From Escherichia coli (GTDB taxonomy: Bacteria; Pseudomonadota; Gammaproteobacteria; Enterobacterales; Enterobacteriaceae): 64,000 nucleotides of DNA. Below, one piece after another: positions 1,844-1,875 of this stretch. The stretch lies in NCBI RefSeq assembly GCF_048403405.1, contig NZ_CP183129.1, one strand, 5' to 3'. A model generated the notes under the pieces. That model worked only from the letters and a program-made list of their open reading frames with translations. It had not been told where the DNA came from and did no database searches. Numbering within the stretch: position 1 is the stretch's first letter; the number at the start of each line of letters is the position of its first letter. Position numbers and translations under genes: made by a program.

Positions 1844-1875
1844 GCCTGATGCGACGCTAATGCGCCGCATCAGAC
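1844..1875. repeat. REP-like palindromic element / hairpin in the appX-appA intergenic region
   Basis: Sequence gcctgatgcgacgctaatgcgccgcatcagac: ctgatgcg pairs with cgcatcag, and the left arm resembles the REP consensus start GCCTGATGCGACGCT. Confidence 0.4.

Follow-up and report, generated by a model that had tools for sequence, protein, structure and literature searches.

Introduction

REPs rank among the best-known bacterial repeats. The intercistronic REP of malE-malF, which Newbury et al. reportedly characterised in 1987, is said to act as an mRNA stabiliser. In the part of PMC12306157 that lists descriptive criteria, REPs are extragenic and transcribed, palindromic, short (14–40 nt), built on a shared consensus motif and present in multiple copies; its summary of functions includes a barrier to 3′-exonucleases, and it cites Liang, Rudd & Deutscher (2015) for the rule that translation is down-regulated where fewer than 16 nt separate a REP from the preceding stop codon. 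For the z1 class, the consensus of Stern, Gilson and Bachellier is GCCTGATGCGACGCTGGCGCGTCTTATCAGGCCTACG, in the form quoted by Durrant et al. (PMC11208160).

Two mobility systems act on such elements. According to Ton-Hoang et al., binding and cleavage by the transposase TnpA_REP (RAYT) require both a GTAG tetranucleotide and a mismatch in the stem, and a stem mutant with the AA-to-GC change is refractory to cleavage in vitro (PMC3333891). The bridge RNA of IS621 targets REPs at the natural 11-mer ATCAGGCCTAC, which has a CT core (PMC11208160).

The present analysis concerns a palindrome between appX and appA in the window, i.e. the whole 64-kb stretch of Escherichia coli DNA that was analysed. 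Compared with these systems, it is an ordinary element of an already known kind, a typical single REP. The minor concrete additions made here are the replacement of a terminator by a REP and the IS621 insertions at the site.

Genetic organization of the appX-appA junction

The features of the region are listed in Table 1. The junction is 100% identical to that of strain 88-3493 and 96% identical to that of K-12. As the preliminary description had placed it, the palindrome lies between the appX stop and the appA start, with the genes on the minus strand. The 79-nt spacer that holds it reads, on the minus (mRNA-sense) strand, TAA(appX stop)-CGAAC-GTAA-GTCTGATGCGGCGC-ATTA-GCGTCGCATCAGGC-38 nt-ATG(appA). 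The distance from the appX stop to the first base of the stem is thus 9 nt, or 5 nt if GTAA is counted, and the appA ATG follows 38 nt downstream of the hairpin. The element is extragenic and lies inside the transcribed appCBXA unit, its transcription being judged from the operon structure and from co-induction.

Table 1. Positions of the features of the app region in the 64-kb window.
Feature	Position	Strand	Remarks
appA (acid phosphatase/phytase)	495..1805	minus	ATG 1805-1803
REP hairpin	1844..1875	minus	5′ arm 1875-1862 (GUCUGAUGCGGCGC), loop 1861-1858 (AUUA), 3′ arm 1857-1844 (GCGUCGCAUCAGGC)
Decayed IS621 bridge-RNA target	1869..1879	plus	ATCAGACTTAC here; ATCAGGCCTAC in K-12-type alleles
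Degenerate REP head tetranucleotide	1876..1879	minus	GTAA here; GTAG in K-12 and most Escherichia lineages
appX (cbdX)	1885..1977	minus	30-aa cytochrome bd-II accessory subunit; stop TAA 1887-1885
appC + appB	1990..4688	minus	upstream part of the transcription unit shared with appX-appA
appB	3126-1990	minus	cytochrome bd-II subunit
appC	4688-3138	minus	cytochrome bd-II subunit

A second hairpin was predicted in the appA leader (1803-1833, minus strand), where GUCGGAUAUG pairs with CAUAUCGAU(G). The start codon of appA lies within it, and the Shine-Dalgarno-like GCGGAAA falls in its loop. Escherichia sp. E1V33 shares this hairpin with E. coli, and the remaining lineages of the genus lack it.

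Several observations were made at the other end of appA. In the window, cspH/cspG directly follow appA (junction region 295-520), and the etk-etp-gfc capsule cluster is missing; the region 1-1200, which spans the appA-cspH/cspG junction, was matched over at least 80% in one piece in 1,674 of 5,426 genomes. Positions 1-165 (minus strand) gave a partial Rfam match to the cspA thermoregulator (E = 2e-4, cut by the window end), which is presumably the cspG 5′ UTR. AppA of the window ends in ...PACALHQDK and that of K-12 in ...PACSL. The alignment with other Escherichia species extends as far as residue 436 in the protein of the window, and the longer C-terminus may therefore be the ancestral state. 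In strain 113, a 6-nt tandem duplication (CTCCGG; locus positions ~40-55, equivalent to window ~1735) lies where the signal peptide of AppA and the first residues of the mature protein are encoded.

Structure and stability of the hairpin

A near-perfect inverted repeat is indeed present at this site. A repeat search returned two arms (1846-1857 and 1862-1873) that are 92% complementary and separated by 4 nt; with G-U pairs allowed, the stem reaches 1844-1857/1862-1875 (14+14 nt) around the 4-nt loop 1858-1861. The element is 32 nt long, or 36 nt with the adjacent tetranucleotide 1876-1879, which it should take in as well.

In silico, the palindrome folds into a stable RNA; with this and with the many similar copies in the species (see below), neither of the two grounds for refutation named in the preliminary description applies. 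The minus strand, which is the sense of the app mRNA, forms a perfect 14-bp stem including two G-U pairs, with a free energy of −26.8 kcal/mol compared to −8.9±2.2 kcal/mol for shuffled sequences (z = −8.15; none of 200 shuffles was as good). The fold of the plus strand is less stable (−18.9 kcal/mol, z = −6.1). When both strands of the 64 kb were scanned in every possible 41-nt window, the hairpin tied for second place in stability. The top hairpin of that scan (6301-6341, plus strand; 15 bp, −27.9 kcal/mol) sits within the hyaD coding sequence (6065-6652, minus strand).

Assignment to the REP family

The left arm, described at first as REP-like, is gcctgatgcgacgct, an exact match (0 mismatches) to the REP head consensus GCCKGATGCGRCGY, and the other arm differs from this consensus at one position; both arms fit it because the stem mismatch has been replaced by G-C pairs. 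Three matches to GCCKGATGCGRCGY occur in the window, compared to 0.33 expected, and three were obtained in none of 100 shuffles. When positions 1844-1880 of the plus strand were compared with the z1 consensus, 29 of 37 nucleotides were identical in an ungapped alignment, including the first 15. The Rfam model naRNA4, which was built from REP325 RNA, gave a weak match (E = 2.2, below the gathering score) that covers exactly 1844-1875 on the minus strand.

Similar copies are abundant in the species. A 43-nt query around the element had matches in all but one of the 5,426 complete E. coli genomes (5,425), 119,945 places in total with a median of 24 per genome, at a threshold for which ~10 chance matches are expected across the whole database. 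The K-12 allele, which is closer to the family consensus than the window allele, gave 40 or more matching pieces in each of 3,592 records. All five of the descriptive features compiled in PMC12306157 are found in the element, and its sequence, length, copy number, naRNA4 match and natural IS621 insertions (see below) agree in bearing out the term "REP-like". A chance palindrome is ruled out by the fold z-score, the REP-consensus matches, the genome copy number and the stability rank. The K-12 annotation consulted (NC_000913.3) marks no repeat at the site, but neither does it mark one at the known araD-araA BIME, so that this absence carries no weight.

With z1 REPs the element shares a length of 37 nt, an extragenic site, transcription within an operon, a GC-rich stem-loop and multiple copies, and its K-12 allele still carries the CTAC/GTAG tag. 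The window copy differs from them in being single, in having G-C pairs in place of the AA/GC mismatch, and in the changes GTAG to GTAA and GCC to GTC. No second, inverted REP was found in the spacer or nearby; it is thus a single REP and not a BIME. Taken together, the palindrome is almost certainly a solitary degenerate z1-class REP.

It is the only REP copy in the 64-kb window, where two other candidates, at 50383 and 28709, were rejected as non-palindromic and coding-like. From the 584 REPs reported for K-12, a rough expectation for 64 kb would be ~8. Only two REPs are present in the 50-kb K-12 region that is homologous to the window's app end. A y-type REP (34 nt, 91% identical to the consensus) is located in the K-12 appA-etk spacer, just downstream of appA (positions 41985-42018 of that region); the window, owing to its different junction, lacks this REP.

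Decay of mobility signals and insertion of IS621

The K-12 allele, GTAG-GCCTGATGCGGCGC-ATTA-GCATCGCATCAGGC, has an intact GTAG head and an IS621 target without mismatches. Its exact 43-mer was found in 3,101 genomes, and that of the window allele in 56. In all E. coli alleles examined, stem pairs 8 and 9 are G-C and C-G, so the canonical AA/GC mismatch is gone. The window copy therefore lacks both substrate features of TnpA_REP, the 5′ tetranucleotide being GTAA and the mismatch being closed, and by the criteria of PMC3333891 it would no longer be a transposase substrate.

The GTAA and GTC changes also convert the IS621 target into ATCAGACTTAC, which has two mismatches to ATCAGGCCTAC, a fit that chance matches at other places in the window equal. 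The combination of GTAA, the healed mismatch and the two-mismatch IS621 target indicates that this copy is probably no longer mobile.

Insertion at the site was observed in other strains. In strain EC01, IS621 lies between appX and appA (locus 1660-2960, corresponding to window ~1876/1877) and parts appA from appCBX. The junctions read ...ATCAGGC|CT|-IS621-...ACAGTAT|CT|ACGTT, and the site of insertion, ATCAGGC|CT|AC, is the natural target ATCAGGCCTAC recombined at its CT core. Seventeen complete genomes, O103 and O111:H11 strains among them, carry a 101-nt IS621 junction that is 100% identical to that of EC01. In terms of the target sites described for the IS621/IS110 family (Choi 2003; Durrant 2024, as far as given in PMC11208160), K-12-type alleles present the exact natural target, whereas the window allele departs from it at two positions. 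These natural insertions at a REP target lend independent weight to the identification of the palindrome as a REP, which is a natural landing pad for IS621 in K-12-type alleles and not in the window strain.

Comparison with other Escherichia and related genera

The junction was compared with AppB-anchored loci from other species, and nine sequences were aligned. appA follows appX only in Escherichia, namely in E. albertii, E. whittamii, Escherichia sp. E1V33, SCPM-O-B-8794 and E69; the last two are labelled E. coli, yet are only 96–97% identical to the query in AppB. All five of these lineages carry a REP-type hairpin of 26–33 nt at the homologous position, within conserved flanks (CGAAC-[G/A/T]TAG ... 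AATAATG).

In the alignment of the Escherichia hairpins, 93% of the cells are standard pairs, compared to 20–42% in controls in which the 3′ partner was slid by 1–3 columns. Changes in both partners were seen at three pairs, namely C-G/U-G/U-A at pair 2, U-A/G-C at pair 4 and G-C/G-U/A-U at pair 8. Covariation scored 0.187, compared to 0.120 for shuffles, none of 500 of which attained the observed value. The canonical mismatch is partly kept in E69 (A.G) and E. whittamii (A.A), and its healing took different routes, through changes in the 5′ arm of the E. coli element and in the 3′ arm of the E. whittamii one.

The y and z classes of REPs are known to co-vary. The compensatory changes among the nine sequences coincide with these classes and could thus have arisen by conversion among REP copies and not by selection. 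This bears on a serious rival to any functional reading, which we consider somewhat unlikely: that the palindrome is neutral selfish DNA, a functionless relic of one REP insertion at a permissive intergenic site in the Escherichia ancestor, whose palindromic form would be upheld through repair templated by the hairpin or through conversion from REPs elsewhere. It would account for the decaying mobilisation signals (GTAA in the window), the allelic variation within E. coli, the free variation of the loop and inner stem (26 to 33 nt), the variable spacing to the appX stop and the IS621 insertions at the site in 17 complete genomes. It would also fit the wobble pairs, as ~4 events yielding G-U pairs against 3 yielding A-C mismatches among the nine sequences do not clearly favour the sense strand. 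Against it stand the retention of a stable hairpin in all six Escherichia lineages and the different ways in which the canonical mismatch was healed; moreover, a hairpin of about −27 kcal/mol inside a transcribed operon would be expected to affect the RNA in some way.

The spacing referred to above falls into two groups. E. coli, E. albertii and one further Escherichia lineage (L006) have 9 nt between the appX stop and the stem. In E. whittamii, E69 and E1V33 the distance is 21 nt; a 12-nt indel lies right after appX, and the TGA of these three is placed 12 nt earlier relative to the REP.

Outside Escherichia, no appA was found within 4 kb of appX in Citrobacter (5 species), Salmonella arizonae or Edwardsiella (3 species). 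In these genomes, RNAfold predicted a GC-rich, terminator-like hairpin followed by a U-run within the first ~75 nt after appX; a simple terminator scan made no call at the Citrobacter and Salmonella loci because the loops exceed 8 nt. Since relatives devoid of appA have such a hairpin after appX, the Escherichia REP appears to sit where the ancestral operon terminator was, with appA appended behind it.

In C. youngae, C. werkmanii and C. braakii, the 12-mer TGCGCTACGCTT is located between appX and the terminator, 10–30 nt past the appX stop. It agrees at every position with the core of the z2 REP consensus and may be a REP relic older than the Escherichia/Citrobacter split.

Transcription across the junction

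The preliminary description had also proposed that the palindrome could be a partial terminator, a suggestion that is poorly borne out. On the sense strand, the stem is followed by AAUCCAUAAU, which contains no U-tract, and the terminator scan called no intrinsic terminator at the hairpin. Intrinsic (Rho-independent) termination at this REP is therefore unlikely, and in view of the lacking U-run RNA polymerase should read through into appA.

Upon induction by YdeO, appC rises 10^2.64-fold and appA 10^1.72-fold in a study that treats the operon as appCBA (PMC4222967). The smaller induction of appA fits read-through with polarity and could equally be due to a separate appA promoter. Such a promoter was reportedly described by Dassa and Atlung. 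Literature searches for appA together with REP, or with promoter, found nothing specific.

The lower induction of appA would also suit an attenuator: owing to a polymerase pause at the hairpin, or to its joint action with Rho, just a part of the appCBX transcripts would go on into appA. REP and BIME elements are reported as attenuators in the introduction of PMC12306157, and the position is that of the GC hairpin and U-run of Citrobacter, Salmonella arizonae and Edwardsiella. Nevertheless, the missing U-tract, the absence of a terminator call and the co-regulation of the operon across the junction make this highly unlikely. The Term-seq tables of PMC7815308 contain no 3′ end between appX and appA, which also points away from attenuation, though the operon was probably barely expressed in the conditions used and the dataset is thus uninformative here.

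Alternatively, the palindrome might act as a DNA-level site, either an operator or part of an appA-proximal promoter with AATAATG as the −10 and the REP overlying the −35 and spacer. The invariance of TAATG in all nine aligned sequences and the separate promoter said to exist would speak for such a site. Against this, no sigma-70-like promoter was found in 1500-2400, on inspection the candidate −35 hexamers fit TTGACA at only 0–2 of 6 positions, and membership of the REP family already explains the palindrome without a dedicated binding protein. We regard this reading as extremely improbable.

Possible role of the REP in the appCBXA transcript

We favour, as probable rather than assured, the reading in which a degenerate z1 REP is read through by RNA polymerase and serves as a 3′-exonuclease barrier for the appCBX mRNA. 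The REP, with a GTAG-type head on the app-mRNA strand, would be transcribed within the polycistronic appCBXA RNA, where it would form its very stable 14-bp hairpin, and RNA polymerase would continue through it into appA. The hairpin would then work post-transcriptionally by blocking 3′-to-5′ exonucleases and shielding the upstream appCBX segment, and this block would leave more appCB(X) message than appA message.

By analogy with characterised REPs, "mRNA stability element", the other function proposed at the outset, would be the best-supported one. The appX-appA element shares with the malE-malF stabiliser its site between cistrons, the lack of a U-tract and a stable hairpin. The malE-malF arrangement predicts more upstream message, and the same would be expected at the app junction; the two differ in that malE-malF has several REPs and appX-appA one.

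A second effect may concern translation. With its stem 9 nt (or 5 nt) past the appX stop, the E. coli junction falls within the 16-nt limit for the stop-proximal REPs of Liang, Rudd & Deutscher (2015), as that work is cited in PMC12306157, and the hairpin may hinder terminating ribosomes and so trim AppX output. In contrast to those REPs, the site in three sister Escherichia lineages lies at 21 nt, and on this comparison translational damping cannot be the conserved role. The two-part mechanism, a stabiliser with a possible effect on appX translation, is by its reliance on analogy put forward tentatively.

A more far-reaching scenario can also be drawn, which is speculative and in our view unlikely. 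The REP would have replaced the intrinsic terminator when appA joined appCBX in the Escherichia ancestor and would then have been domesticated, independent repairs of the mismatch immobilising it and strengthening the hairpin, which would now set the AppCBX:AppA ratio and, at a distance of 9 nt, tune AppX in E. coli.

The comparison with Citrobacter, Salmonella and Edwardsiella offers a small, clean case in which, with the addition of a gene to an operon, the position of a terminator may have become one of read-through. A strong hairpin that is read through could skew the expression of the cytochrome bd-II genes relative to that of the phytase gene, and would in this respect be relevant to the engineering of appA expression.
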